Sequence record: MN781580
Direction: 5' to 3' (one strand)
From: Shigella phage KRT47
Length of the DNA: 64,000 bases
This document shows, piece after piece, positions 8,121 to 21,146 of the stretch. Position 1 is the first letter of the stretch, and each line of letters begins with the position of its first letter. Both the position numbers and the translations under genes were made by a program. A model generated the notes under the pieces. It did no database searches and had not been told where the DNA came from. It saw only the letters and a list, made by a program, of their open reading frames with translations.

Positions 8121-9404
8121 ATGGCTAAAATCAACGAACTTCTGCGCGAATCAACCACAACGAATAGCAACTCAATCGGTCGCCCAAATCTCGTTGCTTT
8201 GACTCGCGCTACCACTAAATTAATATATTCTGACATTGTAGCAACGCAAAGAACTAATCAACCTGTTGCTGCTTTTTATGGTATCAAATACCTTAACCCA
8301 GACAATGAATTTACATTTAAAACTGGTGCTACTTATGCTGGCGAAGCTGGATATGTAGACCGAGAACAAATCACAGAATTAACAGAAGAGTCTAAATTAA
8401 CTCTCAATAAAGGCGATTTATTCAAATATAATAATATCGTTTATAAAGTATTAGAAGATACACCATTTGCTGATATTGAAGAAAGCGATTTAGAATTGGC
8501 TCTTCAGATTGCAATTGTTCTTTTAAAGGTTCGTCTATTTTCTGACGCAGCGTCAACAAGCAAATTTGAAAGCTCTGATAGTGAAATTGCGGATGCTAGA
8601 TTCCAGATTAATAAATGGCAAACCGCAGTTAAATCTCGCAAACTTAAAACTGGTATCACAGTTGAATTAGCACAAGATTTAGAAGCAAATGGATTCGATG
8701 CTCCTAATTTCTTGGAAGATTTGCTTGCAACTGAAATGGCAGATGAAATCAATAAAGATATTCTGCAGTCTTTGATTACAGTATCAAAACGTTATAAAGT
8801 TACAGGAATTACTGATACTGGATTCATTGATTTGAGTTATGCATCTGCTCCTGAAGCAGGTCGTTCATTATACCGAATGGTATGTGAAATGGTTTCACAT
8901 ATCCAAAAAGAATCAACTTATACAGCAACGTTCTGTGTTGCTTCAGCTCGTGCTGCTGCGATTCTTGCTGCATCAGGTTGGTTAAAACATAAACCAGAAG
9001 ATGACAAATATCTTTCACAAAATGCCTATGGGTTTTTAGCTAATGGTTTACCACTTTATTGCGATACTAACAGCCCATTAGATTATGTAATCGTTGGCGT
9101 AGTAGAAAATATCGGTGAAAAAGAAATTGTTGGATCAATTTTCTATGCTCCGTATACAGAAGGTCTCGACTTAGATGACCCTGAACATGTAGGTGCATTT
9201 AAAGTTGTAGTCGATCCAGAAAGCTTGCAACCGTCTATCGGTTTATTAGTTAGATATGCTTTATCTGCAAATCCTTACACCGTAGCAAAAGATGAAAAAG
9301 AAGCAAGAGTAATTGATGGTGGAGACATGGATAAAATGGCGGGTCGTTCAGATTTGTCTGTTTTATTAGGTGTTAAGCTACCAAAAATTATCATTGATGA
9401 ATAA
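8121..9404 (+). CDS. 24: capsid vertex protein gp24
   Basis: 427 aa, T4 gp24 length; gp23 paralogue; synteny. Confidence 0.93.
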   Translation: MAKINELLRESTTTNSNSIGRPNLVALTRATTKLIYSDIVATQRTNQPVAAFYGIKYLNPDNEFTFKTGATYAGEAGYVDREQITELTEESKLTLNKGDLFKYNNIVYKVLEDTPFADIEESDLELALQIAIVLLKVRLFSDAASTSKFESSDSEIADARFQINKWQTAVKSRKLKTGITVELAQDLEANGFDAPNFLEDLLATEMADEINKDILQSLITVSKRYKVTGITDTGFIDLSYASAPEAGRSLYRMVCEMVSHIQKESTYTATFCVASARAAAILAASGWLKHKPEDDKYLSQNAYGFLANGLPLYCDTNSPLDYVIVGVVENIGEKEIVGSIFYAPYTEGLDLDDPEHVGAFKVVVDPESLQPSIGLLVRYALSANPYTVAKDEKEARVIDGGDMDKMAGRSDLSVLLGVKLPKIIIDE

Positions 9405-9410
9405 AACAAA

Positions 9411-9426
9411 GGGACCTTTCGGTCCC
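9411..9426. terminator. bidirectional terminator hairpin GGGACC-TTTC-GGTCCC between gene 24 and rnlB
   Basis: GC stem flanked by T run on + side and A run on - side, between convergent genes. Confidence 0.65.
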
Positions 9427-9433
9427 TTTTTAT

Positions 9434-10438
9434 TTAACTTACCAATTCAATCCAAGCCGGACGAAGTACATCTTGTACCATTTTAACTAATTCCTTTTTA
9501 ATCAAAGAAGGATTATCCGCTTGAGTTAGAGTAATACCTTCACGAGAAGTTTCTTCCAAAATATCTTGAACAGTTAGTCCCATCACCTTTCCAAAATCTT
9601 TTGGACCAATTTCGCCAATTTTAGAAATAACGTTATTTACTCGGTTTAGTGTAACGTAACAAGCTAAAATCCCCACCAATTTGTTATCAGCTTCTGACAG
9701 TTCAACTTTAGCTTTAATAGGCTTATCAGACTTTTTCTTTTCACTAAATTTAGAATTCTTGCATTTGATGGCTACACGATTGCGATTAGGCAGCCAAGAA
9801 GGATAACAAGGTTTCAATACATATCCTTCAGCGGTAAATACTTCGCCTTTGGCTTCAGCTTTCCAAACACATTTGTTAGCGTCAATTAAACCTGCATTAT
9901 CTACGGTAAAATTATAAGACGGAACAACAGAATCCAAATCATTTGGCAATTTAATAAGTTCTTCAAATTTACCACGACCCAAAAGTGGAGCGATTTTAAA
10001 CCCAAATGAATTACAAAACGATTCCATCATGTAATCATCAACATAAGTTACATCGCCACTTTCTGTAGTGACAATAATGTCAAATACATAAAAATCTTTA
10101 TCGCCATAATCAACATTCTTCTGAATGCCAGGTCCAGCGAATTCGCCAAAAACTTGATAAGTCACAACAGCTGAAGTTTCCATAATTTCTTGGACAGCTT
10201 TAATAGAATCTTCGTAATTCTTTAAAATAATTTCATAACCGAAGAAATCTTCAGCAGGAAGAATCGGTCCAGTACGTTTAGCGCAAGTTACTTTATCACG
10301 CTCAATAATCAATGAGAAATTTGTGCCGTGAATCTTTTCACGAGCTACCCATTCGCCGCCAGTCAATCCCAAGCTATAAAGTTTTTCAATAAATTTAGAG
10401 TTGTAATGATTTTCAAGACTGCTATACTTTTTAAACAT
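9434..10438 (-). CDS. rnlB: RNA ligase 2 (Rnl2)
   Basis: 334 aa; ligase motif I KIHGTN; recognised T4 Rnl2 sequence; GAGGA SD. Confidence 0.92.
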
Positions 10439-10447
10439 AATTAATCC

Positions 10448-10726
10448 TCAAAATGTAATTTCTAACCAATCACCATCACGCTGATCACTATTGACTTTAA
10501 AGCTGAATCCCTCTTTTCTCAGCCAATCACCAATTTCTTCAGTAATCAATTTATCGCGAGCAGTACAATAATAACTAAAATATGTTTTACCTTGTTCAGC
10601 TGCTTTATTAGCAAGTTCTGAAAAATCTTTAATAAAACACTCTAGCTTAAACTGTTTACTTTTTAATGCTTTTTCACGTAATTGATTAGCAAAAGATTCA
10701 TTTTCATAAAGATCATACTGTTCCAT
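10448..10726 (-). CDS. hypothetical protein (24.2-like position)
   Basis: 92 aa ORF with AAGGTG SD, tightly packed between rnlB and hoc block. Confidence 0.6.
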   Translation of the reverse strand: MEQYDLYENESFANQLREKALKSKQFKLECFIKDFSELANKAAEQGKTYFSYYCTARDKLITEEIGDWLRKEGFSFKVNSDQRDGDWLEITF

Positions 10727-10928
10727 TTTTCACCTTTTTATTGATATGTCTTTTTCTATAGACAACTTTTTCTCGAGTTTCAAATTTATTCTTAGCAGTC
10801 ATAGCTCGAGCCCATAATACAGCCACTTCTTTCGCCTGTAAGTTTAATTCACGAGCAATTTCAATGAATGACTTTCCAGACTCATGAAGAGTAAACACCA
10901 CAACCTCAGTTCTCATAATCAATCTCAT
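10713..10928 (-). CDS. hypothetical small protein with HTH-like segment (24.3-like position)
   Basis: 71 aa ORF overlapping the previous ORF start; SFIEIARELNLQAKEV resembles a helix-turn-helix; no clear SD. Confidence 0.45.
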   Translation of the reverse strand: MRLIMRTEVVVFTLHESGKSFIEIARELNLQAKEVAVLWARAMTAKNKFETREKVVYRKRHINKKVKNGTV

Positions 10929-10997
10929 GTTATCGAGTTGGTGCCATTATATACATCATTTTCTGAGTGTGTTTTGTGTGCTTTCAAAATGAAGAAA

Positions 10998-11011
10998 GGG
11001 GCCGAAGCCCC
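10998..11011 (-). terminator. hairpin GGGGCTTCGGCCCC (minus-strand sense) after hoc
   Basis: GC stem with UUCG loop just downstream of hoc stop on minus strand. Confidence 0.5.
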
Positions 11012-11017
11012 TTATGA

Positions 11018-12436
11018 TTATGGATAGGTATAGATGATACCAGTTTCTAAAGCAGTTTTATGAATGATGTATCCATTACGTGATTCTTGAACATCAACTT
11101 CTGGATAGTCTTTCATCATCTTCTGAAGGGTGTAACGATGCAGGTAGTATTTACTATCTGGATCTTCAGTTTTCCAATCTTTACCTTCTTCGGTCATTTT
11201 TTGGATTTCATCCATAACCCACCAACCGCACCAGATATAAGCCGAAGTACGATGTGGAAGAGGATGAACATAAGGCAATTCACCTTCTGGTTCTGGAGCA
11301 ACTTTATCAGTTACCTGAACTTGACCTTCTGCTGTGATAGTTTTGCTATCATAATCAGTAGCAGTAACAGTTGCAGTAACTTCAATAGTTTGACTTCCAA
11401 TAGATGATGTATCAACGGTGTATACATTAGTTGACCCTTCTACTGGAGAAGAATCTTTCTTCCATGAATATTCAATTTGAGCTTCTTCTGGAGCATCAGT
11501 GACATTAGCCGTAAATGTAGCCGAAGCATCTTGCTGAACGTTAATAGAAGGAGGAGTCAATGTAACCTGTGGATTCATTGTCTTCTTATTAACCGTTAAT
11601 GATACTTCATTAGAAGTAACTGTTTTTGGGTCATAATCTGTTGCTGTTACTTGGGCTACGCATTTAATTCTTTTTACTCCACTTGTAGTTGGAGTATAGC
11701 TAAATGTAGCAGAAGTTGCTTCACCAATTTGAGAATCATCTACATACCACTGATACGTAGCAGATGCTTCATCAGGTTGAGAAGCTAAGGCAGCAGTAAA
11801 TTGAACTGGGGTTCCGATAACTCCCGCTGGAGGACTATCAGGAGTTACTGCCAAAGTAGTTGTCTGCGTCTTTTTATTAACAGTCAGTGACACTTCATTA
11901 GAAGTAACTTCCTTTGCATCATAATCTGCCGCAGTTACTTGAGCTACACACTTAATTGTTTTAACTCCGCTTGTGTCAGGAGTGTAATTGAATGTAGCGT
12001 CAGTTGCTTCGCCCACAGGAGAACCGTCAACGTACCATTGATACGTAGCAGATGCGCTTGGTGGCTGTGAAGCTAAGGCAGCGGTAAATTCAATTGGAGT
12101 TCCAATCACTCCAGCATCAGGGCTACCAGGAGTTACTGCCAAAGTAGTTGTTTGTGTCTTATTTTGAACTGTGATAGTTGTACTAATTTCAGCTGTTTCG
12201 GGACTACTATCGGCAACTTGATTGGTTGCAACTACTTTAATAGTCTTTTGACCGGCAGGTCCTTTTAGTACATAACTAAAAGTTGCTTCAGCTCCATCTT
12301 GTGGAACATCGTCTACAGTCCAAGCATATGTAATAGGTCCATCTCCAGTTTGACCACTGGGTGTAGCAGTAAACTGCTGAGTCTGATCTATAACTCCAGT
12401 AGGTGTTTTAGGAGTTATATCAACTGTAAAAGCCAT
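11018..12436 (-). CDS. hoc: highly immunogenic outer capsid protein Hoc, 4 predicted Ig-like domains plus capsid-binding C-terminus
   Basis: 472 aa; C-terminal ~95 aa recognised as T4 Hoc capsid-binding region; N-terminal tandem Ig-like repeats. Confidence 0.9.
   Translation of the reverse strand: MAFTVDITPKTPTGVIDQTQQFTATPSGQTGDGPITYAWTVDDVPQDGAEATFSYVLKGPAGQKTIKVVATNQVADSSPETAEISTTITVQNKTQTTTLAVTPGSPDAGVIGTPIEFTAALASQPPSASATYQWYVDGSPVGEATDATFNYTPDTSGVKTIKCVAQVTAADYDAKEVTSNEVSLTVNKKTQTTTLAVTPDSPPAGVIGTPVQFTAALASQPDEASATYQWYVDDSQIGEATSATFSYTPTTSGVKRIKCVAQVTATDYDPKTVTSNEVSLTVNKKTMNPQVTLTPPSINVQQDASATFTANVTDAPEEAQIEYSWKKDSSPVEGSTNVYTVDTSSIGSQTIEVTATVTATDYDSKTITAEGQVQVTDKVAPEPEGELPYVHPLPHRTSAYIWCGWWVMDEIQKMTEEGKDWKTEDPDSKYYLHRYTLQKMMKDYPEVDVQESRNGYIIHKTALETGIIYTYP
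11585..12160 (-). repeat. tandem in-frame duplication (2 x 288 bp) inside hoc encoding two ~83% identical Ig-like domains
   Basis: Protein residues 93-188 and 189-284 align with 80 of 96 identities; DNA motif ACTTCATTAGAAGTAAC recurs at 11604 and 11892 (288-bp offset). Confidence 0.85.
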
Positions 12437-12445
12437 AAGTTATCC

Positions 12446-13126
12446 TTATTTTAATGTTACGAAAGAAGAATTACGTGTTTCACGAATTAGAACTGATCCG
12501 TCACGATTAATGTAGTAAATTAAGCTAAATAAAGTTTGGTGTGCCGACGCATGTTCAAAACTAGTTGGGTGAGATTTCCAATCAGGAGTTTCAGCAATCC
12601 ATTGATAAATCCACCAAGGAACAGTGCAGAATCCTGGATTTTTTCCAATCAGCTGAAGATTCGGACTAAAGTTTTCCGGAAGAGTAAATACAGACGGCTT
12701 TTCAGATTCAATAATCTCAGCTACAGCCTGTTCGAATTTTTCTTCAACAAAAGGAGTATCTTCAATTAAAACAGTGGTATTTTCAGGAATTTTATCCGTT
12801 TCTACTACTTCAATTTTAATGTCAGATTTAACCGGAGAATCAATCAGAAGTGCTGCCTCTGGATTGACTTCTTCATCGTCATATTTTAATCCGTCTGCAG
12901 CATCAGCAGCATCAATTAAGTCTTTAATAGATAACCCATCAGTCTCTGGCATAGGTTCACTAGCGAGCTTCTGGAGGGCTTCTTCAATATCAGCAACGAT
13001 ATTATCAAAAGATTTATTCTTTTTGACCTTTATACCAAACTGCTCAGCATATTCAGCTAATTTAGCTTTAGCTTCTTTGTTATCATCAAGAGCCTTCAGC
13101 TCTGCAATATAATCTTTATCTATCAT
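12446..13126 (-). CDS. inh: Inh, inhibitor of prohead protease gp21
   Basis: 226 aa, T4 Inh length and position between hoc and uvsW; GAGG SD. Confidence 0.8.
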   Translation of the reverse strand: MIDKDYIAELKALDDNKEAKAKLAEYAEQFGIKVKKNKSFDNIVADIEEALQKLASEPMPETDGLSIKDLIDAADAADGLKYDDEEVNPEAALLIDSPVKSDIKIEVVETDKIPENTTVLIEDTPFVEEKFEQAVAEIIESEKPSVFTLPENFSPNLQLIGKNPGFCTVPWWIYQWIAETPDWKSHPTSFEHASAHQTLFSLIYYINRDGSVLIRETRNSSFVTLK

Positions 13127-13139
13127 AATATTTCCTCAG

Positions 13140-13147
13140 TATAAATA
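13140..13147 (+). promoter_or_regulatory. T4-type late promoter TATAAATA upstream of uvsW
   Basis: Exact TATAAATA about 30 nt upstream of uvsW ATG. Confidence 0.55.
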
Positions 13148-13176
13148 TAGATATATTTATTACATGGTATTTAGAC

Positions 13177-14688
13177 ATGACTGACATTAAAGTACATTTT
13201 TATGATTTTAGTCACGTGAGAATTGATTGTGAAGAAAGTACATTTCATGAACTCCGTGATTTCTTTAGCTTTGAAGCTGATGGGTATCGTTTTAATCCGA
13301 AATACAAATATGGCCACTGGGATGGACGAATCCGTCTTTTAGATTATAATCGTCTTCTTCCATTCGGCTTAGTCGGGCAAATTAAAAAGTTCTGTGATAA
13401 CTTTGGCTATAAAGCCTGGATTGACCCACAAATTAACGAAAAAGAAGAATTATCAAGAAAAGATTTTGATGAATGGCTTTCTAAATTAGAAATCTATTCA
13501 GGAAATAAAAGAATTGAACCGCACTGGTATCAAAAAGATGCAGTGTTCGAAGGATTAGTTAATCGTCGTAGAATTCTTAATCTTCCAACATCCGCTGGTA
13601 AATCGTTAATTCAAGCTTTGCTTGCGCGATATTATTTGGAAAATTATGAAGGTAAAATTCTTATCATTGTTCCAACAACTGCTCTAACAACTCAGATGGC
13701 TGATGACTTCGTTGACTATCGTTTATTCAGTCATGCAATGATAAAGAAAATTGGTGGCGGAGCATCAAAAGATGATAAATATAAAAATGATGCACCAGTC
13801 GTTGTTGGTACATGGCAAACTGTAGTAAAACAACCGAAAGAATGGTTCTCACAGTTTGGAATGATGATGAATGATGAATGCCATCTTGCTACAGGAAAAA
13901 GTATTTCATCTATCATATCAGGTTTAAATAACTGCATGTTCAAATTTGGTCTATCTGGTTCATTACGTGATGGCAAAGCCAATATCATGCAGTATGTTGG
14001 AATGTTTGGTGAAATATTTAAGCCAGTAACGACTTCTAAGTTAATGGAAGATGGACAAGTAACTGAGCTAAAAATTAATAGTATTTTTCTTCGCTATCCC
14101 GATGAGTTCACTACTAAATTAAAGGGAAAAACTTATCAAGAAGAAATAAAAATTATTACGGGGCTTAGTAAAAGAAATAAATGGATCGCTAAATTAGCTA
14201 TTAAGCTTGCGCAAAAAGATGAAAACGCTTTTGTCATGTTTAAACATGTATCACATGGTAAAGCTATTTTCGATTTAATTAAAAATGAATACGATAAAGT
14301 TTATTACGTATCAGGGGAAGTTGATACCGAAACCCGCAATATAATGAAAACCTTAGCTGAAAATGGTAAAGGAATAATTATAGTAGCTAGTTATGGTGTA
14401 TTTTCTACTGGTATTTCAGTTAAAAATCTGCATCACGTTGTTTTAGCGCACGGTGTTAAATCAAAAATCATTGTATTACAAACAATCGGTCGTGTATTAC
14501 GTAAGCATGGTTCTAAGACAATAGCAACAGTCTGGGACCTCATAGATGATTGTGGTGTTAAGCCAAAATCTGCTAATACTAAAAAGAAATATGTTCATTT
14601 GAACTATCTTTTAAAACACGGCATTGATCGTATTCAGCGCTACGCAGATGAAAAATTTAATTACGTAATGAAAACAGTTAATTTATAA
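13177..14688 (+). CDS. uvsW: UvsW DNA/RNA helicase (SF2)
   Basis: 503 aa; Walker A PTSAGKS and DECH box; recognised T4 UvsW. Confidence 0.93.
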   Translation: MTDIKVHFYDFSHVRIDCEESTFHELRDFFSFEADGYRFNPKYKYGHWDGRIRLLDYNRLLPFGLVGQIKKFCDNFGYKAWIDPQINEKEELSRKDFDEWLSKLEIYSGNKRIEPHWYQKDAVFEGLVNRRRILNLPTSAGKSLIQALLARYYLENYEGKILIIVPTTALTTQMADDFVDYRLFSHAMIKKIGGGASKDDKYKNDAPVVVGTWQTVVKQPKEWFSQFGMMMNDECHLATGKSISSIISGLNNCMFKFGLSGSLRDGKANIMQYVGMFGEIFKPVTTSKLMEDGQVTELKINSIFLRYPDEFTTKLKGKTYQEEIKIITGLSKRNKWIAKLAIKLAQKDENAFVMFKHVSHGKAIFDLIKNEYDKVYYVSGEVDTETRNIMKTLAENGKGIIIVASYGVFSTGISVKNLHHVVLAHGVKSKIIVLQTIGRVLRKHGSKTIATVWDLIDDCGVKPKSANTKKKYVHLNYLLKHGIDRIQRYADEKFNYVMKTVNL

Positions 14689-14700
14689 GGGCTTCGGCCC
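14689..14700 (+). terminator. hairpin GGGC-TTCG-GCCC after uvsW
   Basis: UUCG-loop hairpin immediately after stop; overlaps uvsW.1 leader. Confidence 0.4.
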
Positions 14701-14713
14701 TTTGGAGAAAAAG

Positions 14714-14944
14714 ATGTTACTAGAATTTAAACAATTTCTTTATGAAGCTTCTATTGATGAATTTATGGGTAAAATTGCCTCTTGTCAAACATTAGAAGGT
14801 TTAGAAGAACTTGAAGCTTATTATAAGAAAAGAGTTAAAGAAACTGAATTAAAAGATACTGATGACATCTCTGTGAGAGATGCTTTGGCAGGAAAAAGAG
14901 CTGAATTAGAAGATTCAGACAATGAAGTAGAAGAAAGCTTTTAA
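14714..14944 (+). CDS. uvsW.1: UvsW.1 small protein
   Basis: Track ORF 14702..14944 starts at TTG; ATG 14714 with GGAG SD gives 76 aa as in T4 UvsW.1. Confidence 0.75.
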   Translation: MLLEFKQFLYEASIDEFMGKIASCQTLEGLEELEAYYKKRVKETELKDTDDISVRDALAGKRAELEDSDNEVEESF

Positions 14945-14953
14945 ATTAAAAAA

Positions 14954-14976
14954 GGCCCAACCAAAAAGGAAGGGCC
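14954..14976. terminator. hairpin GGCCC...GGGCC between convergent uvsW.1 and minus-strand small ORF
   Basis: 5-bp GC stem with 13-nt A-rich loop, A/T runs on both sides. Confidence 0.4.
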
Positions 14977-14999
14977 AAAACTATAGACTAAAGGTCACA

Positions 15000-15167
15000 C
15001 TATAGCAAAAGTTGTGTTTCATTTAATTGTTCTTCCGAACTTTCTGAAACTGGTAGTTCTTTAATGTAATTATAACAAGGCCCAGGATGTACAGGACCTT
15101 TGTCTGTTTCAACAACCAATGCAGAATCGATTGGAGTTTTACAGACAACACAAATCTTATCTGACAT
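15000..15167 (-). CDS. small Cys-containing protein (uvsY.-2-like position), 55 aa
   Basis: Hand-translated ORF absent from track: MSDKICVVCKTPIDS...GPCYNY...; ATG at 15165-15167, stop at 15000-15002; CxxC plus C. Confidence 0.5.
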   Translation of the reverse strand: MSDKICVVCKTPIDSALVVETDKGPVHPGPCYNYIKELPVSESSEEQLNETQLLL

Positions 15168-15195
15168 GATTGTCTCCTCTAAATTATATATCTAT

Positions 15196-15420
15196 TTATA
15201 TAACTCTCATATGCATATCAATGCCCATATCTTTAGAATAAAAATATTCATCAAGATATCCGGAAAATTTTCCTTTAACATAAAGTACATCTTCACCGCA
15301 TGGATGGTCGGCCAGGATACGAATATCCTGACGCTTGAGATTATACTTTTTCATTAAGAATTGAATTTCCGTTTCGAATTCTTCTTCATAATTAAAAGCA
15401 TCATCAATGCTATATCTCAT
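15196..15420 (-). CDS. hypothetical protein (uvsY.-1-like position)
   Basis: 74 aa ORF directly downstream of uvsY on minus strand. Confidence 0.6.
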   Translation of the reverse strand: MRYSIDDAFNYEEEFETEIQFLMKKYNLKRQDIRILADHPCGEDVLYVKGKFSGYLDEYFYSKDMGIDMHMRVI

Positions 15421-15833
15421 TATTTTCCAGCCTCAAATGCTCGCATGTCTTGAATATGCTTAATAGCAAATCCGCGTGATTTAATAGCATCAAGAGCTCC
15501 GCTACAGAAATCTAATAAAATTCCCCAATATTGTAATGAAGTATCAACTTTTAAAACATCCTTATCAGCTGATAGAACTGTCTTCATTTCTGATTTCTCA
15601 TAACGGTCCATACTAAATTCATCACCATCTCCTCGTCCCGAGTAGTAGTCTAATTTAGCTTTAAGAGCAACTTTTTTCTGTGCATCAATTCTAAGCATTT
15701 CCTTTTTAATACTTGAATGCTTATTAAGCCATTTACTATATAACATCACATTATTAGCTGCTTCATACTGTAATTTAGTCGAATCTATAAACACATCTTT
15801 CTTCAATTCTTCTTGAAGATCTTCTAATCTCAT
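15420..15833 (-). CDS. uvsY: UvsY recombination mediator protein
   Basis: 137 aa, T4 UvsY length; recognised sequence. Confidence 0.92.
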   Translation of the reverse strand: MRLEDLQEELKKDVFIDSTKLQYEAANNVMLYSKWLNKHSSIKKEMLRIDAQKKVALKAKLDYYSGRGDGDEFSMDRYEKSEMKTVLSADKDVLKVDTSLQYWGILLDFCSGALDAIKSRGFAIKHIQDMRAFEAGK

Positions 15834-15873
15834 ATTGTTCTCTATTCAATTGTTATTGGATGGACTTAGATTC

Positions 15874-15899
15874 ATTATACCACGTTTATACGTGAAGCA
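15874..15899 (-). promoter_or_regulatory. MotA-dependent middle promoter-like element upstream of uvsY
   Basis: Minus-strand sense aTGCTTCA (MotA box) then TATAAT 13 nt downstream; TGGTATAAT extended -10. Confidence 0.55.
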
Positions 15900-16298
15900 T
15901 TATACTCTGTTACTGGAAGCCAGTTGTAGTTTTATCTGTTCAATATCATCAGGGTTATCGATGACCGAAAAGCGTATTTCTACTATCAGAGTATAATCAT
16001 CATAAACCGGTATTACATTAACTGCTAATTTATCAATACGTGGCTCGTAGTTTCTTACTGCGCTTTCAATGTTACGCTCAACAGTATCAGCAGTAAGAGG
16101 AGTCATATTCTCAAAAAGCTGATCAGATAAATCGCATCCAAATTCTGGGTCAAATGGCCTTGACCCTTTCCTGGTTGTAATAATTCCCAAAAGGCTATTT
16201 TTAATTGACCTTAATCCAAGAGATCTGGAAACGTCTTTGTCCCAATCCATTTTCATTTCTGGGTCAATGTCAGAATAAAGCTTATTAATATTTGCCAT
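15900..16298 (-). CDS. 25: baseplate wedge protein gp25
   Basis: 132 aa, T4 gp25 length; recognised. Confidence 0.92.
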   Translation of the reverse strand: MANINKLYSDIDPEMKMDWDKDVSRSLGLRSIKNSLLGIITTRKGSRPFDPEFGCDLSDQLFENMTPLTADTVERNIESAVRNYEPRIDKLAVNVIPVYDDYTLIVEIRFSVIDNPDDIEQIKLQLASSNRV

Positions 16299-16924
16299 TA
16301 CAATAGCTCAAAGAATTCTTTGAGTCCTCTTATTACATGAGCGTGAGTTTTTCCACACTCTGGACATTTAATTGGAACAGCCAAATAAACAGTAGGCTTT
16401 AAAAGCATATCTTTTATAGCTACAATATCTGACTCTGTGATGATAGAATATAAATCTTCCAACTCTTTTTCATTTAAGTCTTCAATTGGAATGCTTTCAC
16501 CGTTAGCATGAATCGTTTCTATACATGATACTATCATGTGGGCTATATTTTTATCATCAAAAATTTTAGGGTAATGGAACTTAATTTTAATGTCACCCAG
16601 TGTATACCAGAGGTCTTCTGGTGCATCTATTTGTGTATGTAATAGATTTATATGGGTTGGTATTTCAGTTCCGCAGGTGCACTTCCAGGAGTTTTCGTGA
16701 TTAACTTCTCCAAGAGAATGTGCCCATAAATGAATCAATAGTAGTTCTGATTCTTGGCGGTTTAAATCTTTTGCATTTGTGCATTCTTTAATTAGCTTTT
16801 TAACGATCTCTTCTACTGAACCGTTCTTTTTAGCAGTAATAAGTTCTAGATATTCTTTAAGAGTAAATGCGCGACAGTTGATTATTTTAGAACCAACTCT
16901 CACATCAAATTTGTATTCATACAT
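16298..16924 (-). CDS. 26: baseplate hub protein gp26
   Basis: 208 aa; Cys-rich motifs; synteny 25-26-51. Confidence 0.9.
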
Positions 16925-16945
16925 ATTTAGCTCCTTTATTTATCA

Positions 16946-16957
16946 TATTTATAAATA
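16946..16957. promoter_or_regulatory. divergent overlapping late promoters (TATAAATA on both strands) between genes 26 and 51
   Basis: ATATTTATAAATAG gives TATAAATA on + (16950-16957) and on - (16946-16953) in the 50-bp gap. Confidence 0.6.
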
Positions 16958-16974
16958 GAATAAAAGGAGCATCT

Positions 16975-17724
16975 ATGGCAAACATTATTCGTTGTAAATT
17001 ACCAGATGGTGTTCATCGTTTTAAACCATTTACGGTAGAAGATTATCGAGATTTTTTGTTAGTTCGAAACGATATAGAACATCGGTCACCACAAGAACAA
17101 AAAGAAATAATTGCTGATTTAATTGCTGATTATTTTGGAGACTATCCGAAGACTTGGCAACCATTTATATTTTTGCAGGTATTTGTAGGGTCAATAGGTA
17201 AAACTAAAGTACCAGTCACATTTGTGTGTCCAAAATGTAAAAAAGAAAAGACAGTTCCATTTGAAATATATCAAAAAGAATTAAAGGAACCTGTTTTTGA
17301 TGTAGCTAATGTTAAAATTAAATTAAAGTTTCCTTCTGAGTTTTATGAAAATAAAGCAAAGATGATTACTGAAAATATTCATTCCGTTCAAGTAGATGAA
17401 ATGTGGTATGATTGGAAGGAAATTAGCGAATCGAGTCAAATAGAACTTGTTGATGCCATCGAGATAGAAACATTAGAAAAAATTCTCGATGCAATGAATC
17501 CTATTAATTTAACATTGCATATGTCGTGTTGTAATAAGTATGTAAAAAAATACACTGATATAGTAGATGTGTTTAAGCTATTAGTTAACCCAGATGAAAT
17601 ATTTACTTTTTATCAAATCAATCACACGCTCGTAAAAAGTAATTATAGCTTAAATTCAATAATGAAAATGATTCCTGCTGAGCGCGGATTCGTATTAAAA
17701 CTGATTGAGAAGGATAAACAATAA
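16975..17724 (+). CDS. 51: baseplate hub assembly catalyst gp51
   Basis: 249 aa, T4 gp51 length; synteny. Confidence 0.9.
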
Positions 17725-18899
17725 TGAGTATGTTGCAACGCCCCGGATATCCAAATCTCAGCGTTAAATTATTTGATAGCTACGACGCTTGGAGTAATAA
17801 TAGATTTGTTGAATTAGCTGCTACTATTACTACATTAACTATGCGGGATTCTCTTTATGGCCGAAATGAAGGAATGCTACAGTTTTATGATTCTAAAAAC
17901 ATCCATACAAAAATGGATGGAAATGAAATAATTCAGATTTCTGTAGCTAATGCAAACGATATTAATAATGTTAAAACACGAATTTATGGATGTAAGCATT
18001 TTTCCGTGTCAGTAGATTCAAAAGGCGATAACATCATTGCTATTGAATTGGGAACTATTCATTCTATAGAAAATCTTAAATTTGGTAGACCATTTTTCCC
18101 TGATGCAGGTGAATCTATAAAAGAAATGCTTGGTGTCATTTATCAAGATCGCACATTATTAACTCCAGCAATAAATGCTATAAATGCTTATGTTCCTGAT
18201 ATTCCATGGACTAGCACATTTGAAAACTATTTGTCATATGTAAGAGAAGTTGCTCTAGCTGTAGGAAGCGACAAATTTGTATTTGTATGGCAAGACATCA
18301 TGGGAGTTAACATGATGGACTATGATATGATGATAAATCAAGAACCATACCCAATGATTGTCGGTGAGCCATCTTTAATAGGTCAATTCATCCAAGAATT
18401 AAAATATCCATTAGCATATGATTTCGTTTGGTTGACTAAATCGAATCCTCACAAACGTGACCCAATGAAAAATGCTACTATCTATGCTCATTCATTTTTA
18501 GATTCTTCACTGCCAATGATTACTACAGGAAAGGGCGAAAACTCTATTGTGGTGTCAAGGTCAGGTGCTTATTCTGAAATGACTTATAGGAATGGATATG
18601 AAGAAGCTATTCGTCTTCAAACTATGGCACAATATGACGGCTATGCTAAATGTTCTACTGTCGGTAATTTTAACTTGACTCCTGGTGTTAAAATTATTTT
18701 TAATGATAGTAAAAACCAATTTAAAACAGAATTTTACGTTGATGAAGTTATCCATGAATTATCAAATAATAATTCAGTAACTCATCTATATATGTTCACT
18801 AATGCAACGAAACTGGAAACAATAGACCCAGTTAAGGTTAAAAATGAATTTAAATCTGATACTACCACTGAAGAAAGTAGTTCTTCCAATAAGCAATAA
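17724..18899 (+). CDS. 27: baseplate hub subunit gp27
   Basis: 391 aa, T4 gp27 length; ATGA coupling with gene 51. Confidence 0.92.
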
Positions 18900-19377
18900 A
18901 GAAGTTTCTATTCCTAAAATGGGTCTTAAACATTATAACATTTTAAAAGATGTTAAAGGTCCTGATGAAAATTTAAAACTTCTTATTGATTCTATTTGTC
19001 CGAATTTGTCACCAGCAGAAGTTGATTTCGTTTCTATTCATTTATTGGAATTTAATGGAAAGATTAAATCTCGTAAAGAAATAGATGGTTATACTTATGA
19101 CATTAATGATGTTTATGTATGCCAAAGATTAGAATTTCAATACCAAGGAAATACATTTTATTTTAGACCTCCTGGAAAATTTGAACAATTTTTAACGGTG
19201 AGCGATATGTTATCTAAATGCTTGCTTAAGGTCAACGATGAAGTTAAAGAAATTAATTTTCTTGAGATGCCAGCATTCGTTTTAAAATGGGCAAATGATA
19301 TTTTTACAACTTTAGCAATTCCTGGCCCTAATGGTCCAATAACTGGAATTGGCAATATTATTGGATTATTTGAATGA
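18844..19377 (+). CDS. 28: baseplate hub distal subunit gp28
   Basis: 177 aa; start overlaps 3' end of gene 27 in another frame. Confidence 0.85.
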
Positions 19378-21146
19378 AAAAGCCACAAGAAATGCAAACG
19401 ATGCGTAGAAAAGTTATTTCAGATAATAAACCAACACAGGAAGCGGCTAAATCCGCTTCCAACACTTTATCTGGACTTAATGATATATCTACGAAATTGG
19501 ATGATGCTCAAGCTGCTTCTGAATTAATAGCTCAAACTGTCGAAGAAAAATCGAATGAAATAGTTGGAGCAATTGGTAACGTAGAAAGCGCAGTGAGTGA
19601 TACTACTGCTGGTTCTGAGTTAATTGCTGAAACTGTCGAAATTGGCAACAATATTAATAAAGAAATCGGTGAATCACTCGGAAGCAAATTAGATAAATTA
19701 ACAAGTTTACTAGAGCAAAAAATCCAGACAGCTGGAATTCAACAAACAGGAACTAGTTTAGCTACGGTTGAAAGCGCTATTCCTGTTAAAGTTGTTGAGG
19801 ACGATACAGCTGAATCTGTGGGTCCTTTATTACCGGCTCCTGAAGCAGTTAATAATGATCCTGATGCTGATTTTTTCCCTACCCCTCAGCCAGTTGAACC
19901 TAAACAAGAATCGCCAGAAGAAAAACAGAAAAAAGACGCATTTAACTTAAAATTATCTCAAGCTTTAGATAAATTAACAAAGACTGTTGATTTCGGATTT
20001 AAGAAATCTATTTCAATTACTGATAAAATATCAAGCATGCTATTTAAGTATACAGTCAGTGCTGCTATTGAAGCTGCTAAAATGACTGCAATGATATTGG
20101 CTGTTGTTGTCGGAATAGACCTGCTGATGGTTCATTTCAAATATTGGTCAGATAAATTTTCACAGGCTTGGGATTTGTTTAGTACAGACTTTACTAAATT
20201 CTCTAGCGAAACCGGAACATGGGGCCCTTTATTACAGAGCATCTTTAGTTCTATTGATAAAATTAAGAAGCTGTGGGAAGCTGGAGATTGGGGCGGATTG
20301 ACAGCAGCTATTGTAGAAGGGCTTGGAAAGGTTCTTTTTAATTTAGGAGAGCTTATTCAACTTGGAATGGCTAAATTATCTGCTGCAATTCTTCGAGTCA
20401 TTCCTGGCATGAAAGACACTGCTGACGAAGTAGAAGGAAGAGCACTAGAAAATTTCCAAAACACTACAAATGCTTCTCTTAGCAAAGAAGACCAAGAAAA
20501 AGTTGCAAATTATCAATATAAAAGAATGAATGGCGATCTTGGTCCAATAGCAAAAGGACTAGACAAAATTGCGAACTGGAAAACTCGTGCATCTAACTGG
20601 ATTCGTGGTGTTGATAATAAAGAAGCACTAACGACTGATGAAGAGAGAGCAGAGGAAGAAGAAAAATTAAAGCAACTTTCTCCGGAGGAAGCTAAAATTG
20701 CTTTAATGAAAGCTAATGAAGCTCGCGCTGCTATGAATCGTTTTGATGAATATGCTAATTCAGCTGATATGAGTAAAGACTCAACGGTTAAATCAGTTGA
20801 AGCTGCCTATGAAGACCTTAAAAAACGGATGGATGACCCGGATTTAAATAATTCACCGGCAGTTAAAAAAGAACTTGCTGCTAGATTTTCTAAAATTGAT
20901 GCTACTTATCAAGAGCTCAAGAAAAATCAGCCTAATGCCAAACCTGAAACTTCTGCTAAATCACCAGAAGCAAAACAAGTCCAGGTAATAGAAAAGAACA
21001 AAGCACAACAAGCTCCTGTTCAACAGGCATCTCCTTCGATCAATAATACTAATAATGTTATTAAGAAAAATACTGTCGTTCATAATATGACACCTGTCAC
21101 AAGCACAACTGCTCCTGGTGTATTTGATGCGACTGGGGTTAATTAA
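19374..21146 (+). CDS. 29: baseplate hub subunit / tail length determinator gp29
   Basis: 590 aa, T4 gp29 length; coiled-coil-rich. Confidence 0.92.
   Translation: MKKPQEMQTMRRKVISDNKPTQEAAKSASNTLSGLNDISTKLDDAQAASELIAQTVEEKSNEIVGAIGNVESAVSDTTAGSELIAETVEIGNNINKEIGESLGSKLDKLTSLLEQKIQTAGIQQTGTSLATVESAIPVKVVEDDTAESVGPLLPAPEAVNNDPDADFFPTPQPVEPKQESPEEKQKKDAFNLKLSQALDKLTKTVDFGFKKSISITDKISSMLFKYTVSAAIEAAKMTAMILAVVVGIDLLMVHFKYWSDKFSQAWDLFSTDFTKFSSETGTWGPLLQSIFSSIDKIKKLWEAGDWGGLTAAIVEGLGKVLFNLGELIQLGMAKLSAAILRVIPGMKDTADEVEGRALENFQNTTNASLSKEDQEKVANYQYKRMNGDLGPIAKGLDKIANWKTRASNWIRGVDNKEALTTDEERAEEEEKLKQLSPEEAKIALMKANEARAAMNRFDEYANSADMSKDSTVKSVEAAYEDLKKRMDDPDLNNSPAVKKELAARFSKIDATYQELKKNQPNAKPETSAKSPEAKQVQVIEKNKAQQAPVQQASPSINNTNNVIKKNTVVHNMTPVTSTTAPGVFDATGVN

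Follow-up and report, generated by a model that had tools for sequence, protein, structure and literature searches.

The hoc gene of Shigella phage KRT47 (sequence record MN781580) raises the question of whether an in-frame tandem repeat has added an Ig-like domain to the Hoc protein known from T4 and, if so, how such an array came about. We examined this question in a stretch of 64,000 nucleotides of this genome, hereafter the window, for which an earlier note had claimed a Hoc of 472 aa as compared with 376 aa in T4. The list of open reading frames places the hoc CDS on the minus strand at 11018..12436, encoding 472 aa plus the stop codon, and comparison with the T4 chains (PDB 5vf3_Z and 8t1x) upheld the difference in length. 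This ORF encodes Hoc, the highly immunogenic outer capsid protein, in the four-Ig, or five-domain, class of alleles described below.

The window belongs to a Tequatrovirus (T4-like phage), and the 11-kb stretch around hoc shares 97–98% identity with Shigella phage A2, Kelasse and Yersinia phage phiD1. In a phmmer search, the window protein matched the T4 Hoc chains with E=1e-223, and it is identical to GenBank QHB43205.1, annotated as 'head outer capsid protein [Shigella phage KRT47]'. The gene lies downstream of inh (12446-13126) and upstream of 24.3, 24.2 and rnlB (9434-10438), close to the divergently transcribed uvsW (13177-14688); comparison of the window ORFs indicated that this order, rnlB-24.2-24.3-hoc-inh-uvsW, matches the annotation of T4 and RB27. 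Hoc is an acidic protein with a pI of about 4–5 (PMC10385173), and the computed pI was 4.39 for the window protein and 4.74 for that of T4, with masses of 50.8 kDa and 40.4 kDa, respectively. Together with the string of Ig-like domains at its N-terminal side (see below), the window protein showed every defining feature of Hoc that was testable.

Tandem Repeats Finder identified, between positions 11580 and 12160, a tandem repeat with a period of 288 bp and 2.0 copies (79% matches, 1% indels, score 731), and a repeat search yielded two direct-repeat families with a spacing of 288 nt, whose labels D1 and D2 do not refer to the domains of the protein. We delimited repeat unit A at 11870..12157 (minus strand, aa 94–189), of type D2a and, by comparison with T4, the 'extra' Ig/PKD-like domain, and repeat unit B at 11582..11869 (minus strand, aa 190–285), of type D2b and the counterpart of T4 domain 2. 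The two units are identical at 225 of 288 nt (78%) and at 80 of 96 aa (83%), in codon register. These results agree with the earlier note, which had described two consecutive 96-aa units with 83% identity, encoded by directly repeated 288-bp units, and had placed them at 11585-12160, within 3–5 nt of the true boundaries. Likewise, the self-comparison that it had proposed as a check produced a single strong offset, at 96 aa, with 80/96 matches as compared with at most 27/96 for any other offset in the protein self-scan, indicating that the similarity between A and B is far above the background paralogy between Ig domains of Hoc. Since T4 Hoc aligns to residues 1–122 of the window protein (T4 residues 1–122) and again to residues 189–472 (T4 residues 93–376), the window protein contains exactly one additional block of the size of D2. 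Each unit corresponds to one structural domain, with 288 nt encoding, in frame, the 96 aa of one Ig domain. Between the two copies we estimated, by the Nei-Gojobori method, a dS of 0.92 and a dN of 0.125 (dN/dS of 0.135), which argues that the duplication is old and that both copies are constrained.

One domain precedes the repeat and two follow it, and each part of the protein was compared with T4. Ig-like domain 1, at the distal tip of the fibre, is encoded at 12158..12436 (minus strand, aa 1–93) and is identical to T4 D1 at 77 of 93 aa (83%); unit A is identical to T4 D2 at 78 of 96 aa, and unit B at 85 of 96 aa (89%). Ig-like domain 3 (11309..11581, minus strand, aa 286–376) contains Pfam matches to Ig_3 and I-set at aa 289–373, and the block of aa 286–381 is identical to T4 at 83 of 96 aa (86%). 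The domain at the C-terminus that binds the capsid (11021..11308, minus strand, aa 377–472), assigned by homology to T4, is identical at 93 of 96 aa (97%) to T4 Hoc 281–376, so that the claim of a capsid-binding region close to that of T4 was substantiated. The window protein therefore resembles T4 Hoc in its locus (inh-hoc-24.3) and in all its T4-type domains, and differs by the addition of D2a between D1 and D2b.

The fold of the Ig part was examined by prediction. Pfam matches in the window Hoc were of the PKD, Ig_3, I-set and Ig_2 types, with the PKD match located in unit B (aa 195–253). AlphaFold2, run with an alignment of 31 four-Ig alleles, predicted four successive all-beta (beta-sandwich) domains over residues 1–378, mostly with block pLDDT values of 85–95 (85–94 for the strands of domain 1), in a model whose inter-domain geometry is unreliable. 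Foldseek ranked fragments with four Ig domains (Dscam1, ICAM-5 D1-D4) highest among its PDB matches and also recovered the crystal structure of RB49 Hoc (3shs). Pfam, AlphaFold2 and Foldseek thus agree on an N-terminal string of Ig-like domains of the PKD/I-set type, and the claim of four such domains stands in the prediction. Conversely, the C-terminal domain was poorly modelled (pLDDT <50), because the alignment of 31 sequences is shallow, and its assignment is based on the solved domain of T4, to which it is 97% identical, instead of on AlphaFold2. Altogether, the tandem repeat is real and an architecture of D1-D2a-D2b-D3-Cterm is supported.

Cryo-EM structures of the C-terminal domain of T4 Hoc have been solved, and its contacts with the capsid comprise Y293, H295, R300, W309, W310, D313 and the loop E355-S-R-N-G359 (Fokine et al. 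2023, PMC10385173). The 31 four-Ig alleles show no variation at Y389, H391, R396, W405, W406, D409, E451, S452, R453 and G455, and almost none at N454, in the E451-G455 loop. The anchor is essentially that of T4, and the window Hoc should therefore sit at the centres of gp23 hexamers as T4 Hoc does, presumably as a monomer, at no more than 155 copies per capsid, and be dispensable.

We then compared Hoc lengths across relatives, as the earlier note had recommended, and found that 472 aa is one of several discrete classes, of 281/283, 376, 472, 568(/570) and 664 aa. Of 60 records taken at even intervals from the 658 that match hoc, 16 (about 27%) contained a gene of 1419/1420 bp, among them RB27, PhiZZ30 and PYps14T, and 35 contained the T4 form of roughly 1131 bp (T4, T2, T6, RB51 and others); these counts were made by record spans, because joined search matches let a three-Ig gene also cover the query (for example, in H35). 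Phage phiD1 also carries a hoc of 1419 bp. The best 120 protein clusters included 79 with a length of 376 aa and 29 with 472 aa, besides a single cluster at 468 aa and eight at 568/570 aa; with clustering at 90% identity, the four-Ig class thus accounted for no fewer than 30 of them. At the extremes, slur03 has a Hoc of 664 aa with four D2 units, whereas that of vB_Eco_EH2 has only 281 aa and starts with a D1/D2 hybrid domain joined at the common TY.W.VD motif, and that of PNJ-9, with 283 aa, lacks D3. The latter, with two Ig domains, has been characterised as a 'variant Hoc' (PMC11853027). Natural isolates therefore carry from one to four D2 units, and several records contain a frameshifted or split hoc, such as the T6 record and FriedrichMiescher ('part 1/part 2').

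These results indicate that the four-Ig hoc is a common and ancient class of alleles, not peculiar to the window genome. GenBank has contained four-Ig alleles from RB27 onwards, if not earlier, and the window gene was already deposited and annotated as Hoc, so the feature was already known. The four-Ig Hocs of RB27 (KM607000), phiD1, ESh33, A2 and WFbE185 are identical to that of the window in architecture and length, and other four-Ig alleles differ from it only by allelic mosaicism in D1, D2a and D2b. PNJ-9, EH2, UGKSEcP1/2 (568 aa) and slur03 share with the window a string of Ig domains on a conserved C-terminal anchor, but differ in copy number and in the domain gained or lost, with the window being the member with two D2 units. 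Homologues of Hoc were reported to contain from 1 to 10 Ig-like domains, the latter number in the distant homologue of Serratia phage Muldoon (PMC10385173). The window itself consequently offers nothing new in this respect. In the literature that we searched, we found no explicit description of the D2 duplication, of a four-Ig T4-type Hoc or of the series from two to six Ig domains, any of which may nonetheless have been published, and we regard the accordion-like evolution of the Hoc array as a modest, under-described side result.

To which event the tandem owes its origin can be approached through the relationships among D2 units, which at the nucleotide level form two clades, with identities of 83–94% within and 75–80% between them. 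Unit A showed a mean nucleotide identity of 88.9% to other first-position units as compared with 78.6% to D2b units, being 93% identical to unit 1 of ESh33, and unit B was 94–95% identical to unit 2 of KMB23 and ESh33. We typed the units, in about 20 genes out of the 658 matching records, by 13 diagnostic sites at which first units and later units have no base in common; unit A was of type a at 13/13 sites and unit B of type b at 13/13, like T4. The order was the same, with type a in the first unit and type b in later units, in all eight multi-unit arrays for which DNA was analysed (the window, KMB23, ESh33, RB27, A2, slur03, the Mosigvirus WFbE185 and the IMG/VR locus L010). These comparisons indicate that D2a and D2b are old paralogs, present in many genomes of Tequatrovirus and in some of Mosigvirus, and hoc alleles cross the boundary between both genera. 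Protein-level clustering of 148 D2 units had suggested a free shuffling of cassettes, which we rejected because nucleotide typing gave the stricter a-then-b order; the protein-level clustering was noisier, did not separate a and b cleanly, and used an anchor pattern that missed 19 of 122 proteins.

Three-Ig alleles were of three kinds: T4 and locus L011 are pure b, locus L012 is pure a, and the others are a-to-b chimeras, with the switch at nt 140–146 of the unit in phiC600P9 and slur07 and at nt 101–139 in KMB38. The population thus contains products of gain and of loss as well as chimeric units, as would be expected from recombination within the array, with allelic recombination as an alternative source of the chimeras. 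Because some three-Ig alleles are D2a/D2b chimeras, they may be contractions of the four-Ig form; recombination between a-only and b-only alleles could also generate them, and only two independent breakpoints were found, so contraction is just one possible source. Consequently, of the earlier claim that a duplication 'adds' a domain to a T4-type Hoc, the architecture holds, and the direction may have been the reverse, as chimeric three-Ig alleles may derive from longer ones. In our searches, no outgroup with a recognisable unit of the D2a/D2b type was found to root the D2 tree, the D2 of the Klebsiella-phage lineage being too divergent.

The junction between the units carries a further trace of recombination. 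A nucleotide-level comparison of junctions showed that the A/B linker (11843..11896, minus strand, aa 181–198) is chimeric, its left half corresponding to the B/D3 junction (EVSLTVNKK) and its right half to the D1/A junction (TQTTTLAVT), and that a microhomology, AAT-AAG-AC, is common to the three linkers (D1/A, A/B and B/D3). T4-type phages are highly recombinogenic, and unequal crossing-over in such phages should yield a chimeric linker together with a, b and chimeric alleles. We therefore consider it very likely that the window hoc is a common five-domain allele, with an old D2a-D2b tandem that belongs to a copy-number series shaped by unequal recombination. Unequal homologous recombination would produce a series with two, three, four, five or six Ig domains, with crossovers at the linkers between domains, which are short and conserved (TV-N-K-K-T), or within the units, which are 75–80% identical; it would both expand and contract the array and, in doing so, yield chimeric units.

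How the founding tandem was assembled admits more than one route. It is possible, although we would not favour it, that D2a and D2b diverged in separate three-Ig lineages and were joined in tandem later, and we give the same tentative standing to the route by which this could have occurred, a single unequal crossover during co-infection between the D2/D3 linker of one genome and the D1/D2 linker of another. The existence of both pure-a and pure-b three-Ig alleles is consistent with such a fusion, as are the chimeric A/B linker with its microhomology and the exchange of hoc between Tequatrovirus and Mosigvirus, which shows that exchange is frequent. Yet an old intragenic duplication followed by losses fits the same data, and the constant a-then-b order (8/8) points to a single founding event under either origin.

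An extension of the unequal-recombination reading, which we put forward only tentatively, is that the Ig part of Hoc behaves as an actively recombining 'accordion' with a D2a-D2b tandem as its ancestral core, that the three-Ig form of T4 results from the loss of D2a, that repeated gain, loss and shuffling of units gave two to six Ig domains in a single genus, and that selection maintains the polymorphism. Such selection would act on the length of the fibre, its charge and its glycan-binding valency across environments.

We evaluated selection on the separate domains among five four-Ig alleles. Mean pairwise dN/dS values were 0.31 for D1, 0.35 for D2a, 0.23 for D2b, 0.08 for D3 and 0.01 for the C-terminal domain, dropping from the tip of the fibre to the anchor, with a value of 0.06 for the neighbouring inh; these estimates indicate that both D2 copies are under purifying selection. 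They also bear on whether the extra domain could be a neutral passenger, tolerated because Hoc is dispensable and without functional consequence. Hoc is indeed non-essential (PMC3012670), frameshifted or split genes occur in the records, and lengths of two to six Ig domains all persist in isolates. Nevertheless, we consider a neutral passenger unlikely, given the low dN/dS both between the paralogs and among the orthologs of each unit, the frequency of the four-Ig class, with about 27% of the sampled records and no fewer than 30 clusters, and the coincidence of unit boundaries with domain boundaries.

Divergence was unevenly distributed along the gene. In comparisons with the closest relatives, the flanks and the 3' half of hoc were 97–100% identical, whereas the part encoding D1, D2a and D2b was only 75–91% identical, and the closest relative differed from segment to segment of hoc. 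Because of this mosaicism of the Ig part, the best record in the phage collection reached only 94.4% nucleotide identity over hoc. That value, as compared with about 97–98% in the flanks, is what might suggest a recent duplication private to the window lineage, by which a Hoc of the T4 type had newly gained a fourth domain, as is implicit in the earlier note. We regard this as highly improbable, because the dS between A and B greatly exceeds the divergence among these genomes, the units group by position across eight phages, with A and B only 78% identical, and the exact protein was already deposited, the lower identity over hoc reflecting the mosaicism of the Ig part. Lastly, tandem repeats can in principle be mis-assembled, a possibility raised in the earlier note, but the probability that one D2 unit was artificially expanded from a true 376-aa gene of the T4 form is negligible, since 63 of the 288 nt differ between A and B and their longest exact match is 25 nt, so that reads of ordinary length place uniquely, since the 1419-bp architecture recurs in many independently sequenced phages and in the IMG/VR contig L010, and since both copies are in frame and constrained.

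Klebsiella T4-like phages provided a second lineage for comparison. Their Hoc proteins also fall into classes of 282, about 375 and 471–472 aa, the shortest of them lacking D2, and also attain four Ig domains through the in-frame tandem duplication of a unit the size of one domain, although their C-terminal half is only about 65–69% identical to that of the window. In the 471-aa Hoc of Klebsiella phage Marfa (MN044033), the doubled unit is of the D3 type, with a period of 94 aa and 72 of 90 residues identical. Since this unit is of the D3 and not of the D2 type, the duplication was an independent event, and the occurrence of matching length classes in a second lineage indicates that gain and loss of Hoc domains is recurrent. 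On the 'accordion' reading, the D3 duplication would be convergent evidence for selection on the number of Ig domains.

The additional unit has predictable consequences for the fibre. T4 Hoc, with its four domains, is about 180 A long (PMC10385173). As the earlier note had anticipated, a further rigid domain, of about 96 aa, would make the fibre longer, projecting further from the capsid, and the lower computed pI implies a fibre more negatively charged than that of T4. A charge-dependent role of Hoc in the dispersion and clustering of virions was proposed by Fokine et al. 2023 (PMC10385173), and both the raised mass and the lowered pI of the window Hoc bear on it. In the Hoc of PNJ-9, the D2 residues S183-L184-T185 were reported as a MUC2/fucose contact (PMC11853027). 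A sequence-level check revealed the S-L-T motif twice in the window Hoc, at aa 183–185 and 279–281, so the glycan-binding valency may be doubled; with its D2 surface doubled, the window Hoc may mediate mucin/glycan adhesion of the BAM type.

Surface display and vaccine work with T4 use Hoc as their main platform, and the 'bacteriophage adherence to mucus' model is based on this protein. That about a quarter of the sequenced relatives have the four-Ig form suggests that longer fibres probably still assemble. The natural series of two to six Ig domains could therefore be useful for probing the effects of fibre length and valency on mucus binding and virion dispersion, and these discrete natural lengths provide a background for phage therapy and display engineering.

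With regard to the expression of the gene, no T4 late promoter (TATAAATA) was found immediately upstream of inh-hoc in a search of the minus strand, and a scan for sigma-70 promoters gave a signal at or below chance. An ORF of 106 aa with a TTG start, located inside hoc on the opposite strand (11087-11407, plus strand), was unsupported and was taken as a chance ORF. A terminator scan identified a strong hairpin resembling an intrinsic terminator at 10996..11013 (minus strand), consisting of AAGGGGCTTCGGCCCCTT followed by a T-rich tail. This hairpin begins 5 nt past the stop codon of hoc, and terminators are annotated at the corresponding place in the related records WFbE185 and G50.

The hoc gene of Escherichia phage slur03 (LN881728; locus L002, 931-2925) encodes a 664-aa protein, which contains four tandem D2-type units and six Ig-like domains in total. 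Typing at the diagnostic sites assigned its first unit to type a and the second and third to type b, with the fourth being an a/b mosaic. The 281-aa Hoc of Escherichia phage vB_Eco_EH2 (OZ034684; locus L001, 1501-2346) has a hybrid first domain, corresponding to D1 through 'ITYAW' and to D2 starting at 'YVDDSQ'; this suggests that the two paralogous domains crossed over, with the loss of one domain length. The same region of hoc also slips on a smaller scale, as in Escherichia phage vB_EcoM_G50 (MK327942; locus L034, 601-1761), whose 386-aa Hoc contains a 10-aa tandem micro-duplication within D2 (NEKEVTSNED-NEKEVTSNE). Additionally, several records split hoc into two annotated ORFs (labelled 'part 1/part 2', or given as a pair of overlapping CDS) and have a gene span that is off by 1 nt: a T6 record (AP018814; locus L031, 301-1432), FriedrichMiescher (MZ501066; matched record H15) and the matched records H19 and H100. 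The gene is dispensable, and these annotations reflect either frameshifts in it or errors in sequencing.

Among genomes classified as Mosigvirus, the T4-type hoc allele is of the 4-Ig class in WFbE185 (L033), of the 3-Ig class, as an a/b chimera, in KMB38 (L032), and of the 2-Ig class in PNJ-9 (L007), indicating that hoc alleles, including the D2a-D2b tandem, cross genus boundaries. A T4-type 4-Ig hoc, 93.6% identical to that of the window, was also found in MG010123 (H10/P0134), a 32-kb record labelled 'Staphylococcus phage SAJK-IND'. Because its Hoc protein carries the NCBI flag UNVERIFIED_ORG, this label is probably due to contamination or misassignment.

The Hoc length classes of Klebsiella-type T4-like phages (282, ~375 and 471-472 aa), represented by Klebsiella phage Marfa (L016) and two IMG/VR contigs (L013 and L015), arose independently. 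In the 4-Ig Hoc of this lineage the duplicated unit is of the D3 type, with a 94-aa period and 72/90 identical residues in Marfa, and an older repeat with 43/90 identical residues in L013; the Hoc from L015 lacks D2.

A second local dip in identity spans approximately 9690-10340 of the window, within rnlB (RNA ligase 2; 9434-10438, minus strand). Identity here was 81-92% with KMB23, ESh33 and RB27, as compared with 97-100% with Shigella phage A2, indicating a mosaic recombination patch. No record in the 'phages' collection was more than 97.8% identical to window positions 9000-20000; nonetheless, NCBI contains an identical Hoc protein, under Shigella phage KRT47. The collection seems not to include the source genome itself.

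The window contains 17 copies of the T4 late-promoter motif TATAAATA, as compared with 8.9 expected, and none of 100 shuffles reached this number. No minus-strand copy immediately precedes inh-hoc; one copy is found at 13140-13147 (plus strand), where it precedes the start of uvsW by around 30 nt.
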